IMG/VR virus record: IMGVR_UViG_3300046507_000435
Location: 64,001 to 76,960 of that record
DNA length: 12,960 bases
Reading direction: 5' to 3' (one strand)
DNA from: a virus
Taxonomy: Duplodnaviria > Heunggongvirae > Uroviricota > Caudoviricetes
The position numbers and the translations under genes are program-made. This document shows, piece after piece, positions 1-8,421 of the stretch. Numbering within the stretch: the first letter of the stretch is position 1; every line of letters begins with the position of its first letter. The notes beneath the pieces were generated by a model. It made no database searches, was not told the origin of the DNA, and was given only the letters and a program-made list of their open reading frames with translations.

Positions 1-1480
1 ACGGTGGATGAATTCCACGAATTTAAAAATCTTTGGTACTCGTCGCGCCTGACGGGCGTAAAGGGCATGGGCAACAAGACCGGCTCGCAAAAGGCGTTTG
101 ACATGTACAACAAGATCCGCGTGCTGCGCGATTCGCCGACCGGTACCGTCACCGCGATGACCGGCACGCCGATTTCCAACAGTGCCGTGGAAATGTACAC
201 CATGATGCGCTACCTGGCCGCCGGCGAGCTGCGCGACATGGGGCTGGAGCATTTTGACGCCTGGCGCGCCCAGTTCGTCAGTGCGGACGCCGGCTGGGAG
301 CCGACCGAAACGGGCCGCTTAAAGGAAGTGAACCGTCTGGGCCGCACCTGGTCGAATATGCGCTCGCTGATGGACCTGTACTACAGCTTCACCGATTCGG
401 TGGACAACGACGCCATCAAGGCCGCCTATGCCGAGGACAACAACGGCGCCGCCTTCCCGATCCCGCAAGTGAAGGGCGGCGATCGCCAGTCGATCGTGAT
501 CCAGCCGACCGCCGGCCAGATCGGCATCCTGAACGAGGTGCTGGATGGGTTCGACAACCTGGGCGACATCAAAGACCCGCAGGAGCGCAACAAGGCGCGC
601 CTGCGCCTGATGGACCGCGCCCGCAAGGTATCGCTGGACGTGCGCGCGGCCGATCCGCGCAACACCAGCATGGAAGCGGGTGGCAAGCTCGACGTGCTGG
701 CCGACAACGTGCACCGCATCTACCAGCAATGGGACGCCGATCGCGGCACCCAGCTGGTGTTCCTCGACCGTTCGGTCCCGAAGGCCAAGGGCGATGACGC
801 CGTGCTGAAGGAGTACGACGCCCTGGTGGCGGCCCAGAACGAAGCATTGCGCGCGGGTGACGAAGCTGGCCAGCGCCGCGCCGGCGAGGCGCTGGAGCGC
901 TTCGACCCGAACGAAATGGAAGAGCTGCGCGCCGCGCAGACGGGCGGCTGGAACGCCTATCAGCAGATCAAGGACAACCTGATCGCGCGCGGCATCCCAG
1001 CCGACGAAATCCGTTTTGTGCAGGAAGCGAACAGCGACGCCCAGAAAAAAGCCCTGTTCGACGCCGTCAACGACGGCACCGTGCGGGTCTTGATCGGTTC
1101 GACCCCGCGCATGGGCGCCGGCACCAACGTGCAAAAGCGTCTGGTGGCGCTGCACCATGCCGACGTGACGTGGAAGCCGTCCGACATCGAGCAGCGCGAA
1201 GGGCGCATCATCCGTCAGGGTAACTCGCTGCTGGACAAGTACGGCATGGACAAGTTCGCCGTCGAGATCCTGGCCTACGCCACCGAGCGCACCATCGACG
1301 CCAAGATGTGGTCCTTGAATTCGTCCAAGCTGCGCACCATCAACGGCATCCGCAAGTATGACGGCGCCTTCTCGATGGACTTTGAGGACGAGGAATCGGT
1401 CAGCATGGCCGAGCTGGCCGCGCTGGCATCGGGCGACCCGCTGTTGCTGGAGCGTGTCAAACTGATGTCGGAGATTGACA
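1..1480 (+). other. SF2 (SNF2/DarB-type) helicase domain of the giant protein
   Basis: Walker B DEFH (7-18), motif III TGTPISNS, motif V LIGST..MGAGTNVQ, motif VI WKPSDIEQREGRIIRQGN. These match my recollection of P1 DarB-like methylase-helicases. The methyltransferase and Walker A would lie upstream of the window. Confidence 0.9.
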
Positions 1481-4400
1481 AGCTGGAGCTGCTCAAACGC
1501 CAGCATGCCCGCAAGGAATGGGGCATCATCAGCCAGATCGAGGACGCCGAGCGCACCATCGCGCGCGCGCCGGCCCGCATCGCCGCCCTGCAGCAGGACA
1601 TGGGAGTGCTGAGCGCCGGCCAGGCGGCCATGGAAGCGGCCGCCGCCCAGCGCCGCGTCACGGTCGAGGGGCAGCAGTACAGCGACCCGACCGCCGCGCG
1701 CGCCGCCGTGCACGCCGCCGTCCAGACCCAGCAGCAGGGCGACGAGAAGGCCAAGGTATCGATCAACGTGGGCGGGCGCCGCTTGACCACGATGGACGGC
1801 GCCAACAGCGCCATCACCACGGCGCTGGGCGACAGCACGCCGTTTGCCATGACGGTGGGCGAGCAGACGCTGGGCGCGCGCACCGACGCGGCCCGCGCGC
1901 TGGCCAACATCGCCCAGCAGCAATCGAATAAGCTGGAGGCCGGCGAGGAAGTGACGGTACCGGCCGGCCGCTATCTGGGTCTGCCGCTGGAAATGACGGT
2001 GGTGCACAACAACCACGGCGGCCACTATGTCACCCTGGCGGTGCTGCGCGCCGACGGTTCGACCCTGCAGACGGCCGACACGAATATTCGTGCCGATACC
2101 GCCTACACCACCTCGTTCCTGCGCGGTGCGGTCGAGAAGCTGGAAGAGGCGCTGGAGCCGGGCCGCCTGTCGTACCAGATCAGCTATCAGGAAAAGGCGC
2201 TGGCCAGCGCGCAGGCCGGCCTGCCGGACCTGCAGGCCCGCAAGGGCGGCGCCTGGCCGCAGCAGGGCGAGCTGAACGCCAAGAACGAACGCCTGTCGCA
2301 GGTCATTTCGCTGCTGTCGTCCGGCGTGCAATCGAGCGCGCCGGGTGTGCGCTTCTCGATGAATCCCCTGATGAACGCCGACGGCAGCTACCGCCGCCAG
2401 GCGCCGGTGGCCGGCGGCGCGCTGTTTAGTCGCAAGCGCATCGACACCGACGACCAGCTGGTCAACGTGTACGCGCAGATCGCGCAGGACGACGACGCTT
2501 TCCGTATCCCCGACAGCGGCGCGCGTACCCTGGCCGGCGTGATGGCCGACATGGCGCCGGGCGTGGCCGTGGACGACTTTTATAGCGCGGGCCACCGTGA
2601 AGAGGGCGACCCGATGGCCGACCGCGTCTGGCATATCAGCGCGCAGGATGGCACTGGCGCCAACGCCTTTGTGTACCGCAATACCCGGGCGCGCCAGATC
2701 TGGCTCGACATTTCGAACTGGAAGGAAGGGCGCTCCGGCAACCGCATCTATCAGGCGGTGGCCACCTGGGCGCACAATACCGGCACCCAGTTCATCGGCG
2801 ACCCGGCCGGCCTGTCGGACAAGGCACTGTACCGTCGCACCGAGCAGATGCTGTCGTCGGCGCTGCGCCATGGCACCACCCAGCACCTGGCGCCGCACGC
2901 GCGCCAGCAAGAGGCCACCCACACCAAGAACGGGGAAGCGATGCGCCCGGTTCATTGGCGCGATGGTCATGACGCAAAGAACTTGCGGGAACTGTTGCTT
3001 TCGTCCTACACTAACATCCGCACTGTCTTCCCTGAAATCGATGATGTCCATTACAACTTCTCCACCGGCCAGTTTGAGCGCGCGCCCGCATCCGTTCGCG
3101 CATCTGGCGGGCCATTACTGGCTGACCAATCCGCTGCGGGAGAACCAGTTGCTCAGCACGGGCTGGGAGCCGGAGCAGATCGAGGCGCTGCCGGACGATC
3201 AGTTGACGGCGCTGATGAAGGACAGGGGCAGCTCGCACGAGTGGCTGCAATTCCTGTCACTGACGCGGATTTCCGCGCTCTTGGGGAATCGGTTCGCCGA
3301 GCCTATGACGTACTCTTCCCTTCCGGTCGAGGAGCGTTTACGCCTCCGATTGGCGTGTCTGATCTTAAAAGAGCGGCTCTCACCGGTACCGTACTACGCG
3401 CAGAAGGAAGCGAAGTGGGGCGAGCAGTTCTGGATCACGTATCAGAGCGGCTGTTACAACGAGTAAGCCCGCAGTTGGCCGGCCTGCTGTATAGCCCGAG
3501 CGCGGACTACTTCCGCGAAAGTGACGAATTCTCCCCGGCCGTGATCGACGCGGTGCCCCATCACGGGGTGCTGCCGCTGGCCGCCACGCTGTCGGGCGCC
3601 GATCTGCTGCAGGCGATGAAAGACACCGAGCAGCTGAACCGCCAGCTGATCAAGGAAGGCATCGCCCCGGTGCGTGCGCTGCGCACGGCGCCGAGCAGTG
3701 ACTTCGCCCTGGCGCGCCAGATCGGCGCCGCGCTGGGCATTCCGGTGCACTTTGTTGGGCAGAACAGCGCTTTTGAGGGCGTGGCCCACAAGGGCGTGGC
3801 CTTCCTGTCCGAGGGCATGCGCAACCCGGAGCTGGCCATCGCCGGCCACGAAACGCTGCACGCGCTGGAGCAAAGCAATCCCGCCCTGGGCGAGCGTCTG
3901 CGCCAGCAGATCCGCGCCTACCTGAAGGCGGGCGTGGTGCAAGAGCGCCAGCTGCAGGAATACGCCGCCAGCGGCTTCCAGGATGTCTCGCTGGAGAAGG
4001 CCGAGGGCGAGGTGCTGGCCGACATCAACGGCGCCATGTGGCTCGATCCGCAATTCTGGTCGGATCTGGCCAAGGCGGACGCCTCGCTGTTCCGCACCGT
4101 GGCCTACAAGTTCATGGAGCTGGCCGCCAAGGCGATCAGCGCCCTGCGCAGCCGCCGCTTTGACGTGGCGCGTCTGGTCACCGACGTGGCGGCGGTGCGC
4201 GCCATCATGGTCGATACCTGGGCGCAGCACGCCCAAGGCCTGCACGCGCGCGACGACATCAGCGCGCCGGCGGCCTTCTCGCCTGCGGGCGGCGACCATG
4301 CCGCAGCACTGGACAAGGCCCGGGACGCCGATCGCCAACTTGCCGAGGTTGCATTACAATACGGGGGCCGCGACGCCTACCTGGCGCAGAAAGCGGCCGG

Positions 4401-7400
4401 CGCCACGCTGCTGACCTATCCGCAGTGGTTGATCACCAAGACGCCGAATTTCAAGCAGTTTTATGGCGATTGGGAGGCCAAGCATGGACCCGCAGCAGAC
4501 GCAGCAATTCATCTCGGCCATCAAAACGGCGAAGAGTACGGCGGACCTTACAGCGTTGCTGATGACGCTGCCGGCGGCACCCCTTCCTTCTTTGGCCAGT
4601 CCGGACCCGTACGAACGATTGGAGGCACTGGAGAATCTGCCGCGCGCGAGCCAGCCGTCTACTATCACGGAACTACGGCGGATATTGACGCCTTCGACCT
4701 GAACCACCCGGGCCGCAAGGACCACGGCTGGCTGGGCACGGGCGTCTACGTCACCAGCTCCGAGTTCGTCGCCCATGGCTACGCCGACATCAAGGGCACC
4801 GAGGGCAAGAACATCGTACCGGTGTTTGTCGCCGTCAAGAACCCCTATGTGGCCCCTGCCGGCCTCAAATCCAAACTGAAAAACGCCCCGCGCGAAGTGG
4901 TCGACGCCTTCACCGCGCGCCTGGCCGCCGATGGCCACGATGGGGTGGTGTTCGAAACGCGCGCCGGCGCGCAGGAGCTGGTGGCCTTCAACCCGGCCGC
5001 CGTCAAGTCGGCCATCGGCAACAATGGCGCCTTCGACAAGGGCAATGCCGACCTGCGCTTTAGCAAAACCGACGGCGCGGCGAAGGCGGTCAAGATCGCA
5101 TGGTCGGACGACCATGAGCCGGGCCAGAACCCAGCGGGCATCAGCGCCTATGTCGAGGGCCACGAAGGCAAGGCCTTCATGTTCGCCGAGGATAACGCTG
5201 ACGGCACCTACTCGATTCAGGAGTCGGGGCTGCCTCCCGAGCTGCGCGGACAAGGCTACGGCGTCAAGATGTATCAGGCCTTAATCGATGAAATGGCGCG
5301 CCGTGGCCAGGTGCTGACCTCGGATGTCTCCGTATCGCCGGCCGCCCAGCACGTCTACCAGGCGCTGCAGGATCGCGGCTACGGTATCGAGCGCAATCCC
5401 AACGTGAGCGCCGATCCGGACACGGGCGCGCTGGAGTCCAATGACGGCAAGCCGGTCTACCGCATCATCCCGCGCGATGGCGGCCTGCTGTTCAGTCGCG
5501 CCGGCATCGGCGAGGCGATCGCCAGCGCCGCCAACAACGCGGCCGCGCTGCGCCTGCCGGCCGGCTACCTTGTCGGCGACCTGTTCAACCAGTCGGGCAA
5601 GATCAGCTGGTGGCACAAGACCATCGGCACCATGGAGAACCTGGCCAAACGTCAGCCGGCCTTCGCCCGCGTGTACGACGCCGTGCAGAGTTTTATTGGC
5701 GACATTTCGCGCTACGCCGTGGCGGCCGCCGACCTGGCGCCGACGCTGCTGCCCAAGCTGGAGGATTTCAAGGACGTGTTCGGCAAGGACCGCAAGAAGC
5801 CGCTGACGGCCGAGGACACCAAGGCGATCGGCGCGCCAATCTTCGAAGGCACGCTGTCGTGGGCGCGTGACGCCAATGGCAAGCCGGTCAAGATGGAGGT
5901 GCTGGAAGCGCAGGCCGCGCAGCTGACGACCGAACAGAAGGCCCAGATCCTGCTGCAAAAGGGCATCATCGATGACGGCCAGAATCAAGCCTGGCTGGGC
6001 CAGTCGGGCATGATGTACCAGAACATCATCGACAGCAAATTTACCAAGACCCAGCTGGCCGCCGGCGTGGTCTGGACTGATCCGGAGCTGCGCGAGCTGT
6101 TCAGCCTGAACGATCACCAGATCGCGCTGTACCGCGAATTCCGCGCCGCCCTCGACAAGAGTTTGACGAACCTGTCGATCAGCGAAATGGTGAAGTTCGC
6201 CGGCAAGGATGCCAAAGGCATGCTGGAGCAGGCCATCGCGGCGCCGGACATCAAGGCCGCCGGCGAGCTGCTGCGCGACCACTTCATTGCCCTGGCCCAG
6301 CAGGAGCCGGACAAGGCCGACATGCACCTGACCACGGCCAGCCAGCTGATGGATCTGGCCGACAAGGGCGAGGATCTGATTCGCCGCGGCTACGCGCCGC
6401 TGTCGCGCTTTGGCAAGTACACGGTGTACGTGCAGCAGGGCGAGGAACAGGTGTACTTCGGCATGTTCGAAACCCAGTATGAGGCCTCCAAAATGGCGCG
6501 TGACATGGCCGCCGAGCATCCGGACGCCACCGTCACCCACGGCACCGTGTCGGAGGATGCCTATAAACTGTTCGCCGGCGTGTCGCCGGAAACGATCGAG
6601 CTGTTCGGCTCCATGGTCGGGCTCGACAGCCAGGCCAACGCCGCCAGCACCGAGGTGTACCAGACCTATCTGAAGCTGGCCAAGAACAACCGCAGCTCGA
6701 TGAAGCGCCTGATCCAGCGCAAGGGCATCGCCGGTTTCTCGGAGGACGCCGCGCGCGTGCTGGCCGGTTTTATTTATTCGAACGCCCGCCTGACCGCCGG
6801 CAACGCCCACCTGGGCGAAGTGGACGAGGCGATCACGGAGATTCCGAAGCAGCAGGGCGAATTGACGGACGCGGCGATGCAGCTGCGCGAGTCGATCCGC
6901 AACCCTGAAGGGGGCAATAAACTGGGCGGACTGATGTTCGCGCAGTTCCTGGGCGGCTCCGTGGCGTCGGCCATGGTCAACCTGACGCAGCCGGTCACCA
7001 TGACGCTGCCATATTTAAGTCAGTTTGGCGGCATCGCCAAGGCCGGCAGCCGCCTGGCGGCCGCGATCCGCGACGCCGGCAAGGAAACGACGGGCGAAGC
7101 GCACCTTGACGAGGCGCTGCGCTGGGCTGCCGACGAGGGCATCGTGGCGCCGCAGGAAGTGCACTACCTGCAGGCGCAGGCCGCCGGCAAGGGCGCGCTG
7201 CGCTCGGGCGACGGCACCCGCGCCGGCAACGCCCGCGCCGCCCTGAACAACGCCCTGTCCAAGGTCCAGCTGGGATGGGGGAAATTGTTCGCCATGGCCG
7301 AACTGACCAACCGCCGCGTGACCTTTATCGCCGCCTACCGCACCGCGATCGATGAGAACATCCCGAACCCGGCCAAATTCGCCGAAGAGGCGGTGTCCCA

Positions 7401-8421
7401 GACGCAGGGCACCTACAACAGTGGCAACAAGCCGCGCTGGGCCCGGGGCGCGATCGGCGGCGTCTTGATGACCTTTAAGCAGTATTCGATCGGCTATCTG
7501 GAGCTGTTGTCGCGCATGGCATTCGCCGGCGCGCCGGGCTCGAAAGAGCGCGCCGCCGGGCGCCGCGCGGCGCTGTACATGCTGGCCGTGCTGTTCCTGA
7601 TGTCAGGCGCCGACGGCTTGCCGTTCGAAGCGGATCTGGAGGACGCGATTGACGGCCTGATGCAGCGACTGGGCTACAACTACTCGACCAAGCGCGCCAA
7701 GCAGGCGTTTTTGACCGACGTGCTGGGGCAGGGCGGCGCTGATTTTGCCTTAAAAGGCCTGTCGAGCATGCCGGGTATGCCGGTCGACGTGGCGGGGCGC
7801 TTCGGGATGGGCAACCTGATCCCGGGTACCGGGCTGCTGACGAAAAAGCAGTCCTATACGCAGGATCTGGGCGAGCTGGCCGGACCGGCCGGGGACATCG
7901 CCAAGCGGGCGTTTTCGGCCACCGGCAAGGCGCTGGGCGGCGACATCGCCGGCGCCGCCATGGACCTGTCGCCGGCGTCGGTGCGCAATGCCGTCAAGGG
8001 CGCCGACATGATCGCCACTGGCCAGTACAGCGACGGTCGCGGCTACAAGGTCAACGATGTCACGCCGATGGAAGGGGTGTTAAAAATCGTCGGCTTCCAG
8101 CCCAACAGCACGGCCAACATTCAGGACGCCAAGGGCCAGGCGCTGGACGCGATCGCGCAGAACCGCATGCGGTCCTCCGAGATTCAAGAGCATTGGGCGC
8201 AGGGCATCGCGGCGCAAGATCCGGCCATGATCGCTCAAGCCCGTGAATGGCGCGACGACTGGAACAGCAAGAACCCGGACACGCCGATCCGGGTCAACAT
8301 GCCGGCGATCGCCAAGCGGGTACGCAGCATGCGTCAGGACGCGCTGAACCGGACCCAGAAGACGGCCCCGGCCGCGCTGAAGGCGACGGTACGCAACGAA
8401 CTGTCGGAGGTACGCCACTGA
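1..8421 (+). CDS. Giant DarB-like polyvalent protein, 5'-partial (helicase + GNAT-like + zincin + ART + GNAT + PLxRFG/LPD38-like); probably a virion-packaged, injected protein
   Basis: Frame 1 is open from base 1 (ACG GTG GAT GAA TTC CAC = TVDEFH), so GTG at 4 is an internal Val and not a start. Ends in TGA TGA at 8419-8424. GC3 about 90% in sampled stretches. Recognisable motifs are listed as separate features. Confidence 0.93.
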   Translation, partial: TVDEFHEFKNLWYSSRLTGVKGMGNKTGSQKAFDMYNKIRVLRDSPTGTVTAMTGTPISNSAVEMYTMMRYLAAGELRDMGLEHFDAWRAQFVSADAGWEPTETGRLKEVNRLGRTWSNMRSLMDLYYSFTDSVDNDAIKAAYAEDNNGAAFPIPQVKGGDRQSIVIQPTAGQIGILNEVLDGFDNLGDIKDPQERNKARLRLMDRARKVSLDVRAADPRNTSMEAGGKLDVLADNVHRIYQQWDADRGTQLVFLDRSVPKAKGDDAVLKEYDALVAAQNEALRAGDEAGQRRAGEALERFDPNEMEELRAAQTGGWNAYQQIKDNLIARGIPADEIRFVQEANSDAQKKALFDAVNDGTVRVLIGSTPRMGAGTNVQKRLVALHHADVTWKPSDIEQREGRIIRQGNSLLDKYGMDKFAVEILAYATERTIDAKMWSLNSSKLRTINGIRKYDGAFSMDFEDEESVSMAELAALASGDPLLLERVKLMSEIDKLELLKRQHARKEWGIISQIEDAERTIARAPARIAALQQDMGVLSAGQAAMEAAAAQRRVTVEGQQYSDPTAARAAVHAAVQTQQQGDEKAKVSINVGGRRLTTMDGANSAITTALGDSTPFAMTVGEQTLGARTDAARALANIAQQQSNKLEAGEEVTVPAGRYLGLPLEMTVVHNNHGGHYVTLAVLRADGSTLQTADTNIRADTAYTTSFLRGAVEKLEEALEPGRLSYQISYQEKALASAQAGLPDLQARKGGAWPQQGELNAKNERLSQVISLLSSGVQSSAPGVRFSMNPLMNADGSYRRQAPVAGGALFSRKRIDTDDQLVNVYAQIAQDDDAFRIPDSGARTLAGVMADMAPGVAVDDFYSAGHREEGDPMADRVWHISAQDGTGANAFVYRNTRARQIWLDISNWKEGRSGNRIYQAVATWAHNTGTQFIGDPAGLSDKALYRRTEQMLSSALRHGTTQHLAPHARQQEATHTKNGEAMRPVHWRDGHDAKNLRELLLSSYTNIRTVFPEIDDVHYNFSTGQFERAPASVRASGGPLLADQSAAGEPVAQHGLGAGADRGAAGRSVDGADEGQGQLARVAAIPVTDADFRALGESVRRAYDVLFPSGRGAFTPPIGVSDLKRAALTGTVLRAEGSEVGRAVLDHVSERLLQRVSPQLAGLLYSPSADYFRESDEFSPAVIDAVPHHGVLPLAATLSGADLLQAMKDTEQLNRQLIKEGIAPVRALRTAPSSDFALARQIGAALGIPVHFVGQNSAFEGVAHKGVAFLSEGMRNPELAIAGHETLHALEQSNPALGERLRQQIRAYLKAGVVQERQLQEYAASGFQDVSLEKAEGEVLADINGAMWLDPQFWSDLAKADASLFRTVAYKFMELAAKAISALRSRRFDVARLVTDVAAVRAIMVDTWAQHAQGLHARDDISAPAAFSPAGGDHAAALDKARDADRQLAEVALQYGGRDAYLAQKAAGATLLTYPQWLITKTPNFKQFYGDWEAKHGPAADAAIHLGHQNGEEYGGPYSVADDAAGGTPSFFGQSGPVRTIGGTGESAAREPAVYYHGTTADIDAFDLNHPGRKDHGWLGTGVYVTSSEFVAHGYADIKGTEGKNIVPVFVAVKNPYVAPAGLKSKLKNAPREVVDAFTARLAADGHDGVVFETRAGAQELVAFNPAAVKSAIGNNGAFDKGNADLRFSKTDGAAKAVKIAWSDDHEPGQNPAGISAYVEGHEGKAFMFAEDNADGTYSIQESGLPPELRGQGYGVKMYQALIDEMARRGQVLTSDVSVSPAAQHVYQALQDRGYGIERNPNVSADPDTGALESNDGKPVYRIIPRDGGLLFSRAGIGEAIASAANNAAALRLPAGYLVGDLFNQSGKISWWHKTIGTMENLAKRQPAFARVYDAVQSFIGDISRYAVAAADLAPTLLPKLEDFKDVFGKDRKKPLTAEDTKAIGAPIFEGTLSWARDANGKPVKMEVLEAQAAQLTTEQKAQILLQKGIIDDGQNQAWLGQSGMMYQNIIDSKFTKTQLAAGVVWTDPELRELFSLNDHQIALYREFRAALDKSLTNLSISEMVKFAGKDAKGMLEQAIAAPDIKAAGELLRDHFIALAQQEPDKADMHLTTASQLMDLADKGEDLIRRGYAPLSRFGKYTVYVQQGEEQVYFGMFETQYEASKMARDMAAEHPDATVTHGTVSEDAYKLFAGVSPETIELFGSMVGLDSQANAASTEVYQTYLKLAKNNRSSMKRLIQRKGIAGFSEDAARVLAGFIYSNARLTAGNAHLGEVDEAITEIPKQQGELTDAAMQLRESIRNPEGGNKLGGLMFAQFLGGSVASAMVNLTQPVTMTLPYLSQFGGIAKAGSRLAAAIRDAGKETTGEAHLDEALRWAADEGIVAPQEVHYLQAQAAGKGALRSGDGTRAGNARAALNNALSKVQLGWGKLFAMAELTNRRVTFIAAYRTAIDENIPNPAKFAEEAVSQTQGTYNSGNKPRWARGAIGGVLMTFKQYSIGYLELLSRMAFAGAPGSKERAAGRRAALYMLAVLFLMSGADGLPFEADLEDAIDGLMQRLGYNYSTKRAKQAFLTDVLGQGGADFALKGLSSMPGMPVDVAGRFGMGNLIPGTGLLTKKQSYTQDLGELAGPAGDIAKRAFSATGKALGGDIAGAAMDLSPASVRNAVKGADMIATGQYSDGRGYKVNDVTPMEGVLKIVGFQPNSTANIQDAKGQALDAIAQNRMRSSEIQEHWAQGIAAQDPAMIAQAREWRDDWNSKNPDTPIRVNMPAIAKRVRSMRQDALNRTQKTAPAALKATVRNELSEVRH
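2434..3070 (+). other. Divergent GNAT-like domain (cassette 1)
   Basis: IWLDISNWKEGRSGNRIYQAVATWAHNTGTQFIGDPAGLSDKA parallels the GNAT motif A/B pattern of the second GNAT in this protein (G.G..xYQA....A..G....D..xS..A). Recognised by eye, no HMM run. Confidence 0.5.
2983..3012 (+). promoter_or_regulatory. Putative internal sigma70 promoter upstream of nested ORF1
   Basis: TTGCGG (2983-2988) - 18 nt - TACACT (3007-3012), inside a stretch where the host frame uses atypical codons (TTG, CTT, ACT). Confidence 0.35.
3041..3466 (+). CDS. Nested +1-frame ORF1 inside the giant gene, about 105-141 aa, unknown function (candidate immunity protein)
   Basis: Hand count over about 3074-3463: GC3 about 82% in the +1 frame versus about 44% in the host frame, against about 90% elsewhere in the host gene. 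The product reads like a folded protein (HPFAHLAGHYWLTNPLRENQLLSTGWEPEQIEALPDDQL...KWGEQFWITYQSGCYNE). TAA at 3464-3466. Start uncertain: ATG 3041/3044, TTG 3074, or TTG 3149 (GGGAG 6 nt upstream). Confidence 0.72.
   Translation: MMSITTSPPASLSARPHPFAHLAGHYWLTNPLRENQLLSTGWEPEQIEALPDDQLTALMKDRGSSHEWLQFLSLTRISALLGNRFAEPMTYSSLPVEERLRLRLACLILKERLSPVPYYAQKEAKWGEQFWITYQSGCYNE
3496..4260 (+). other. Zincin-like metallopeptidase domain (cassette 2)
   Basis: IAGHETLHALE (HExxH at 3847-3861) with a downstream EGEVLAD acidic motif that could supply the third ligand. Such domains are known in phage polyvalent proteins. Confidence 0.7.
4332..4360 (+). promoter_or_regulatory. Putative internal sigma70 promoter upstream of nested ORF2
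   Basis: TCGCCA (4332-4337, 4/6 to TTGACA) - 17 nt - TACAAT (4355-4360, 5/6 to TATAAT). It coincides with a short run of rare host codons (CAA CTT GCC GAG GTT GCA TTA CAA TAC). Confidence 0.55.
4345..5064 (+). other. ART-PolyVal-type ADP-ribosyltransferase cassette (H-Y-E clade) (cassette 3)
   Basis: TLLTYPQW...TPNFKQFYGDWE leader, then YYHGT (H at 4666), GWLGTGVYVT (Y at 4747), AHGYA, GHDGVV, ELVAF (E at 4975), ending KSAIGNNGAFD...DLRFS. Matches the ART-PolyVal pattern from memory. Confidence 0.85.
4484..4702 (+). CDS. Nested +1-frame ORF2 inside the giant gene, 72 aa, predicted helical, unknown function (candidate ART immunity or regulator)
   Basis: GGAGG (4473-4477) 6 nt before ATG 4484. 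Hand-counted GC3 about 72% in the +1 frame versus about 53% in the host frame. Amphipathic product MDPQQTQQFISAIKTAKSTADLTALLMTL...YERLEALENL...ITELRRIL. The host frame here is a Gly/Ala-rich, linker-like insert. Confidence 0.72.
   Translation: MDPQQTQQFISAIKTAKSTADLTALLMTLPAAPLPSLASPDPYERLEALENLPRASQPSTITELRRILTPST
5068..5480 (+). other. GNAT acetyltransferase domain (cassette 4)
   Basis: Acetyl-CoA-binding motif A LPPELRGQGYG (RGQGYG 5245-5262), followed by KMYQALID and LTSDVSVSPAAQHVYQAL. Confidence 0.85.
5500..8418 (+). other. PLxRFG domain and LPD38-like C-terminal region
   Basis: YAPLSRFGKY (PLSRFG at 6397-6414). Helical and hydrophobic C-terminal region (MTFKQYSIGYLELL, GLPF, GMGNLIPG) resembling the ends of phage internal-virion polyvalent proteins. 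The LPD38 label is from recollection. Confidence 0.65.

Follow-up and report, generated by a model that had tools for sequence, protein, structure and literature searches.

Does a phage gene that encodes one giant multi-enzyme protein hold further genes within its own coding sequence, on the same strand and in another frame? The question is raised by IMG/VR virus record IMGVR_UViG_3300046507_000435 (Caudoviricetes), of which we analysed the final 12,960 of 76,960 nt, referred to as the window. Here, a single open reading frame (ORF) of 5,833 codons (genome positions 54920-72421) encodes a DarB-like polyvalent protein, and its 3' 2,806 codons are open along window positions 1..8421. This frame is called the host frame in the following, and coordinates are window positions on the plus strand if not stated otherwise. 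An initial annotation of the window had proposed that two independently promoted +1-frame genes are hidden in cassettes of this protein. We find that the first of them, here named X (3041..3466), is almost certainly a real overlapping gene, and that the second one, ORF2 (4484..4702), is likely a gene as well. That both are real and separately translated nested genes, leaving their role aside, we consider very probable given their sequences and those of their relatives.

The first hint is provided by the G+C content per codon position. Along the giant gene, host codon positions 1/2/3 show values of about.65/.45/.88. Two stretches within the window deviate from this, i.e., we observe.88/.64/.44 for 3070-3219 and.72/.52/.54 for 4456-4605, and both deviating patterns turn out to be the ordinary coding pattern when read in the +1 frame. 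The change points of respective cumulative plots are found at ~3079 to 3466 and ~4480 to 4700, such that both stretches finish at the +1 stop codon. Across all 5,833 codons there are only three outliers of this kind, namely the site of X (site 1; z 4.5), the site of ORF2 (site 2; z 2.8) and a third one located 5' of the window (z 4.9). The latter is the strongest flip of the whole ORF and holds a 112-codon +1 ORF (L037:14345-14683; genome 60345-60683), for which no Pfam match was obtained. The initial observation that the codon signal moves to the +1 frame at two sites while the host frame stays open is thus confirmed by flips that end at +1 stops. The recurrence of the arrangement, also noted before, extends to three sites in one giant gene when the one 5' of the window is included.

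Base composition has to be considered when judging such ORFs. The window DNA is ~65% G+C and long alternative-frame ORFs are common in it, e.g., a 910-aa antisense ORF opposite the giant gene (319-3051, minus strand), which is a typical GC-rich artefact. For this reason, ORF length alone is no evidence here. That alternative frames are often open in GC-rich DNA would also suit the most sceptical explanation of the locus, by which there is no second gene and the +1 signal was left behind by a recent frameshift, fusion or insertion, or stems from a constraint at the nucleotide level, with no functional protein involved. ORF2 lends something to this explanation, as its openness is expected by chance and its family has four members only. 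The evidence from X, given next, bears on it from the other side.

X reads from ATG 3041 (a second ATG follows at 3044) to TAA 3464-3466, encodes 141 aa with a predicted all-alpha fold, and was delineated by its GC flip, its conservation and this fold. It finishes 15 nt 5' of a cassette junction motif. Every homologue has X open in its +1 frame, at identities between 68% and 37%. That is, it is uninterrupted in the +1 frame of the giant ORF of the Massilia violaceinigra B2 plasmid (NZ_CP024609.1, with X at 43348-43764) as well as in IMG/VR and metagenome contigs at 49-68% identity (L003, L004, L006, L016, L017). At 37% identity, in contig L009, X is called as a gene and the giant ORF is split in two. 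Relatives of X are furthermore found as small called proteins, seven of which (P0004-P0009, P0011) were identified via phmmer among 1.8 billion representatives; an 811-aa repetitive eukaryote-like protein from the search with X (P0010, E 6e-5) was judged spurious. No match to X was obtained among phage GenBank records (tblastn) or in the first scan of genome contigs, and the metagenome scan with X provided one locus only. Inspecting the +1 frame of homologues for stops had been suggested as a check of site 1; across close homologues, none occurs within X. A sequencing error or compensated frameshift at this site is ruled out by the same two-frame layout being present in many independent assemblies.

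Selection acts on both frames of the overlap. When host codons are shuffled synonymously, the +1 frame is open in 0.1-21% of the shuffles per sequence (product 7e-12 for 8 sequences), and vice versa, X-synonymous shuffles leave the host frame open in 0.2-17% (product 3e-11 for the same number of sequences); these products overstate the significance, given that the sequences are related, but synonymous sites outside the overlap are near saturation. The variability of host third positions decreases from ~.5 outside the overlap to.19-.33 inside. Pooled differences within the X overlap are lower for NN (.283) than for NS (.345), and lower for SN (.348) than for SS (.386), i.e., changes altering both proteins are rarer than those altering one (NN vs. 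NS, SN). Concerning amino-acid identity, with both translations being ~50-60% identical, X exceeds the host in its N-terminal half (.49 vs..42), and both are conserved in the C-terminal half (X.55, host.60). Under the N-terminal half of X, the host protein consists of a Gly/Ala/Arg/Asp linker of low complexity, which evolves faster than X does. Beyond this spacer, X overlaps a conserved domain segment for ~230 nt.

Open in all homologues, with conserved start and stop and a constraint on host-synonymous changes, the nested +1 gene claimed for site 1 is real by all these measures. Without a second gene, several observations would be hard to account for: X is conserved down to 37% identity across sequences that are saturated at synonymous sites, its start and stop have been kept, both frames are open more often than expected, its fold is predicted with confidence, and it persists at 48-49% GC. 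Even for ORF2, the GC flip, the Shine-Dalgarno (SD) sequence and the start are retained in three diverged homologues. We consider it extremely improbable that the +1 signal reflects no functional protein.

The start of X bears on whether X is translated on its own or as an extension of the host product. In 7/7 relatives, the host dipeptide Asp-Val is encoded by GAT-GTC, which results in the +1 ATG, although GAC is preferred (GAT fractions of.24-.49 across the seven sequences; product 3e-4). In L016, the host Asp is replaced by Ser (AGT) and X still has a start, i.e., GTG. An ATG or GTG is thus present at the same site in 8/8 close homologues, and the stop codon of X is located in the same alignment column in all 8 sequences. 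A programmed +1 ribosomal frameshift, by which the X frame would provide the alternative C-terminus of a shorter helicase-LPD37 isoform ending at 3466, would go along with the weak SD sequence before X (GAGA/GAAA), with a +1 frame that is open for at least 120 nt 5' of the X ATG in all homologues, and with the first 10-15 residues of X, which are poorly conserved and show low model confidence. It would leave unexplained why the start is kept in 8/8 close homologues via a disfavoured codon and why an ATG is found in all distant LPD37 loci discussed below. On the 48% GC contig L008, moreover, X is intact and open for 176-211 codons, while the host frame, recognisable by residual similarity, has two stops upstream. 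No conserved slippery motif was noticed, the search for one being not exhaustive. A dependence on upstream 0-frame translation combined with the lack of an own start, as it would mark a programmed frameshift, does not emerge from the X alignments, and we regard such a mechanism as very unlikely. What they do show are the marks of a same-strand overlapping gene, i.e., two frames that are open beyond chance and under purifying selection each, and an own start for X.

The predicted structure is in line with a separate protein. Based on an 11-sequence alignment, AlphaFold2 models X with a pLDDT of 89.2 and a pTM of.81 as nine helical elements, six of them with at least six residues. Such a confident all-alpha model would not be expected for a mere out-of-frame translation. 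A Foldseek search with the model against PDB and AFDB clusters provided nothing at E<1, the best Z of VIA-align wide was 3.0, the ESM Atlas shape search reached a TM of at most 0.39, and the Atlas feature search had no usable match. PDB sequence profiles provided nothing meaningful for X either. We also considered TnpV (PF14198), for which no match was found among the 11 X-family members, P0002/P0003 (containing X/ORF2) and the third nested ORF (Pfam, E<=0.1). The products of X and ORF2 are unrelated to each other. X defines a novel family, and its confidently predicted fold has no known counterpart.

Next, the signals for separate expression are to be considered. A sigma70-like promoter had been claimed for each of the two ORFs. 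This holds in part: the consensus promoter scan calls no site before X, while one site with 9/12 matches is called before ORF2. The support for promoters comes instead from conserved hexamers with rare host codons. Upstream of X, a 39-nt block (2980..3018) is nearly invariant in the alignment of 6 homologues, third codon positions included, i.e., it is conserved at host-synonymous sites. It comprises the weak sigma70-like hexamers TTGCGG-18-TACACT, also TAACAT, which are located ~25-35 nt 5' of the X ATG, and an ACT codon, which makes up only 5.8% of the Thr codons in the giant gene. The block is a candidate internal promoter or translation signal for X. At site 2, the called site TCGCCA-17-TACAAT (4332..4360) is the only promoter-like call within 2500-5000. 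Its hexamer TACAAT is made of the host codons TTA-CAA-TAC, with TTA used for 3.4% of Leu and CAA for 14.8% of Gln codons. The respective sequence ATTACAATA is invariant in all four ORF2 sequences; nearby synonymous sites vary. There is good evidence that ATTACAATA/TACAAT is a signal at the nucleotide level, and plausibly this signal is a promoter. Separate promoters for the nested genes are plausible on this basis, for ORF2 more so than for X.

ORF2 starts with ATG 4484 and encodes 72 aa, for which three helices are predicted; it was delineated by its GC flip and the conservation of its start. An SD-like GGGAGG (4472..4477) lies 6 nt before the ATG. The same motif is found in L013, while L040 has GGGTGG and L015 has GAGAGG. 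ORF2 sits in a ~55-aa insertion between a "FYGDW" leader and the "YHGT" start of an ART-PolyVal domain (4648..5034, aa 1550-1678), a predicted ADP-ribosyltransferase that is matched by PF18760 with 71.8 bits (cut-off 31.2). With this match above cut-off and ORF2 ending at 4702, the initial placement of the second nested ORF in the cassette of an ART is well founded. Relatives of ORF2 are found in L013 (host ORF intact), in L040, a Burkholderiaceae metagenome-assembled genome (MAG; host intact, 580 codons), and in L015, an Oxalobacteraceae MAG. In L015, what is left of the ART region is a decayed fragment, flanked by a resolvase gene and a type I restriction-modification (R-M) system, and the host frame shows a TGA at a host Trp codon as well as a frameshift; ORF2 is intact there, 72-76% identical, with a GTG start. 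The window shares the GC flip with L013 and L040. Conservation in the middle of ORF2 extends to all three codon positions, and the selection test on ORF2 has low power. For its C-terminal half (residues 38-78, window 4597-4699), we observed a likeness to a class-I SAM methyltransferase in L022 (G384:C2), i.e., 49% over 41 residues following motif II (E 1e-4 per genome, 401 genomes searched), which was judged to be probably chance. In summary, the second nested gene is backed by the GC flip, by the conserved SD sequence and start, and by its intactness in a decayed copy, while its openness alone is not significant.

Concerning the cassette that hosts X, the initial assignment as GNAT-like has to be replaced. 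The region is matched by Pfam LPD37 (PF18853; nt 2467-3165, aa 823-1055) with E 4.5e-64 and 216.7 bits (cut-off 27), spanning profile positions 2-216 of 243, whereas a weak GNAT match is located in another cassette, which has no nested ORF. The LPD37 cassette (2416..3480) extends from the junction G-A-L-F-S (aa 806) to G-L-L-Y-S (aa 1161), and the host-frame segment that overlaps X corresponds to LPD37 profile positions ~172-242, i.e., the C-terminal third of the model. Part of a curated Pfam domain is thus shown to be dual-coding.

Among 401 genomes of the order to which one related MAG belongs, we found seven with LPD37. Wherever an LPD37 copy is readable as far as its C-terminus, an open +1 frame begins with an ATG at the same host motif and reaches nearly up to the junction. 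Counted here as distant loci are L026-L030, L034 and two short remnants, L031 and L032. Their X-like products have 63-139 residues from the first ATG (~75-100 from the host-motif ATG) and a C-terminal motif in common with X; one of them is found at 49% GC. The probability of an open +1 frame is.001-.29 in 7/8 distant loci, with the shuffle for L032 being uninformative due to a TAG in the host frame. This last locus (L025/L032; G044:C2:23872-27139) is peculiar in another respect. Its LPD37 C-terminal remnant with the X-type +1 ORF, which shows the one TAG in the host frame, adjoins a tandem array with a unit repeated many times, which could be a CRISPR array.

Because an X-type ORF is found in every LPD37 cassette readable to the C-terminus, we take it to be an old and integral part of the LPD37 module in phages, plasmids and chromosomal islands. 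X travels with LPD37 whichever cassette comes next, i.e., the HExxH domain in the window, LPD38 in L009 and another one in L003, and among the X copies found, none is free of an LPD37-derived host-frame segment. Its persistence in every LPD37 lineage examined indicates that X should be useful wherever LPD37 occurs. The earlier statement that nested genes are physically inseparable from their cassettes is hence supported by X, which ends 15 nt before the junction and goes with LPD37.

This association also bears on the idea that X and ORF2 are independent cargo. That is, they might be self-standing accessory genes, moron-like or regulatory, which arose in tolerant linkers by read-through or insertion and whose function is unrelated to the cassette. 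The idea gains from X keeping its frame on L008 despite the broken upstream host frame, and from ORF2 being intact in the decayed ART fragment of L015 beside the resolvase and the type I R-M system. The N-terminal half of X, lying over a low-complexity linker that evolves faster than X, is in accordance with it too, and so is the coincidence of ORF2 with an insertion relative to other ART leaders. However, the C-terminal half of X overlaps a conserved and integral part of the LPD37 model instead of a spacer, and X-type ORFs occur in every LPD37 copy readable to the C-terminus, with no X found outside an LPD37-derived segment. A role as independent cargo appears possible, if somewhat unlikely.

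With regard to function, we tentatively favour that X is made in the producing or carrier cell and binds the LPD37 module there, as its chaperone or inhibitor, which is a possibility and no firm assignment. This reading overlaps with the immunity function that was proposed initially, by which X and ORF2 are cognate inhibitors of toxic cassette enzymes, expressed from own promoters, and protect the lysogen or producer. ORF2 would fit such a function, as it is located directly before a bona fide ART-PolyVal domain and has both a conserved -10-like hexamer and a strong SD sequence; so would X, which persists in each of the LPD37 lineages examined. On the other hand, the X cassette is LPD37, for which no activity is known, and not GNAT, while the GNAT-like cassette is without a nested ORF. 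In the Massilia plasmid protein, the ART-PolyVal cassette is without an insertion of ORF2 size, and the small number of ORF2 sequences found (4) implies that ORF2 is not a general requirement of the ART domain. Furthermore, X and ORF2 show no likeness to known immunity or antitoxin families. Taken together, immunity in this strict sense seems unlikely to us.

Several results weigh against the two nested genes and the proposed partnership, in addition to the overstated shuffle products and to the weak SD and missing promoter call of X. Neither X nor ORF2 has a match in Pfam, PHROG or NCBIfam or belongs to a known antitoxin, immunity or chaperone family, with the PADLOC library not included in the search. 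Because the overlap itself forces co-inheritance, the co-occurrence of X and LPD37 is not proof of a functional pair. A co-fold of the LPD37 cassette with X, done without controls, resulted in scores of 0.00, 0.69 and 0.26, i.e., a median of 0.26 for a mark of 0.32, and counts neither for nor against the pair. For ORF2, database searches provided only 4 sequences including the window. ORF2 is open in 4/4 of them, but so are 87.5% of the host-synonymous shuffles, and its openness therefore carries no weight. Finally, the AlphaFold2 model of ORF2 (3 sequences), which shows three helices, is of moderate confidence (pLDDT 73, pTM.35).

Considering all of the above, the giant polyvalent gene is best explained as being dual-coding at discrete places. 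X is selected separately and most likely translated by internal initiation at a conserved ATG of its own, replaced by GTG in one relative. This would result in a compact all-alpha protein of ~140 residues without known relative, whose gene overlaps the host linker of low complexity and the conserved C-terminal part of the LPD37 module. ORF2 would repeat this layout in a younger and less common form, featuring a strong SD sequence, a conserved -10-like hexamer and an insertion before ART. Internal promoters possibly drive the nested genes. The overlap would guarantee that X and LPD37 are always inherited and exchanged together. One may extend this to a general design rule, by which injected polyvalent proteins hold out-of-frame partner genes (inhibitors, chaperones, immunity factors) inside their cassettes such that each cassette is a self-contained two-protein unit, with LPD37 and X as the oldest and most widespread one. 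For the time being, we consider such a rule doubtful.

The remaining architecture of the giant gene provides the context for these genes. Within 2344-5496, cassette borders are marked by the protein motif G-x-L/R-F/Y-S at aa 782, 806, 1161, 1684 and 1828; the last four of these, of the form G-x-L-F/Y-S, delimit three cassettes: LPD37 (2416-3480), the HExxH domain together with ART-PolyVal (3481-5049), and the GNAT-like one (5050-5481). The likeness of the junctions is at the level of the protein motif, with DNA that is similar but not near-identical; a repeat search of 2300-5600 provided no 21-nt near-identical junction repeats, only short imperfect ones. A conserved domain follows the LPD37 cassette (3481-4320, aa 1161-1440) and bears the HExxH motif HETLH (3847..3861) in its host-frame translation. 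It is common to L002, L004, L006 and L016, swapped out in L003 and L009, and has zero matches in Pfam, PHROG and NCBIfam; judging from its motif, it may be an undescribed metallopeptidase-like cassette. The weak GNAT-like stretch (5170..5364) is located two cassettes 3' of X. Its match to PF00583 (aa 1733-1788, nt 5197-5364) is below the cut-off (19.8 vs. 20.7 bits), and the GC-by-codon-position scan shows no nested ORF in this cassette. At the N-terminal end of the window part, the giant protein matches the PHROG "DarB-like antirestriction" and Helicase_C, while its long C-terminal region, matched by phrog_21376/11358, is common to other giant phage proteins. Regarding codon usage, the Leu codon TTA occurs 8 times among the 2,806 host codons of the window, with two copies inside the X overlap (3115 and 3454) and one in the -10-like hexamer before ORF2 (4354).

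Genes like X are easily lost in annotation, i.e., gene callers either miss such overlaps or cut the giant gene in two. The first case is found in the RefSeq annotation of the Massilia violaceinigra plasmid (NZ_CP024609.1), which lists for 32079-48746 one 5,555-aa CDS "PLxRFG domain-containing protein" and no X. The second case is found in contigs L009-L012, where the gene caller calls X and resumes the giant gene ~100 nt later as an 855-aa LPD38 protein. X is a real and conserved gene that goes unannotated. If the small proteins are partners of their cassettes, this would change the understanding, annotation and engineering of injected multi-enzyme proteins. As a cultured strain carrying X, Massilia violaceinigra B2 offers a direct experimental handle.

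How does this layout compare to known systems? Conserved same-strand gene overlaps of more than 400 nt are, to our knowledge, rare in bacteria and tailed phages. The overlapping genes of phiX174 are one case of out-of-frame embedding. Another is the phage gene pair of Rz1 inside Rz, known from lambda and, as embedded class, from Bcep22-like phages (PMC9144972, PMC5295617). It shares with X that a small gene is contained in its entirety within a larger phage gene, on the same strand and in the +1 frame, with its own start and with both products being selected. In contrast, the host is here a 5,833-codon multi-enzyme protein of the virion-protein kind with three such inserts. The embedded product is a lipoprotein partner in a known complex there, while soluble helical proteins are predicted here, and X covers a conserved domain segment in addition to a spacer.

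Polyvalent proteins of phages and conjugative elements were described by Iyer et al. 2017 (PMC5512222), and the DarB-like gp69 of phage JC1 (cf. Bcep22 gp75) is virion-associated according to mass spectrometry (PMC9144972). The host gene resembles these with its methylase-helicase N-terminal part, followed by LPD37, ART-PolyVal and GNAT-like cassettes and a PLxRFG-type C-terminal region. The words 'overlapping', 'frameshift', 'immunity protein' and 'LPD37' are absent from the main text of PMC5512222, and where the JC1 paper speaks of overlap, it refers to the attP site or to the genes for holin and spanin, not to gp69 (PMC9144972). Similarly, a full-text literature search that covered LPD37 as well as genes nested in or overlapping with those of polyvalent or DarB proteins provided nothing relevant. 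The initial impression that this layout had no prior description in polyvalent proteins is consistent with that search, in which none was found.

A further comparison is to polymorphic toxin systems, in which the immunity gene is located downstream and does not overlap. They have in common with the locus studied here that effector domains are modular and exchangeable and that a small gene is tightly linked to one module. The analogy of polyvalent cassettes to polymorphic toxin cassettes is also drawn in PMC5512222. The differences are that X is unlike known immunity families, and that the small gene is here located inside the coding sequence of the very module it is linked to.

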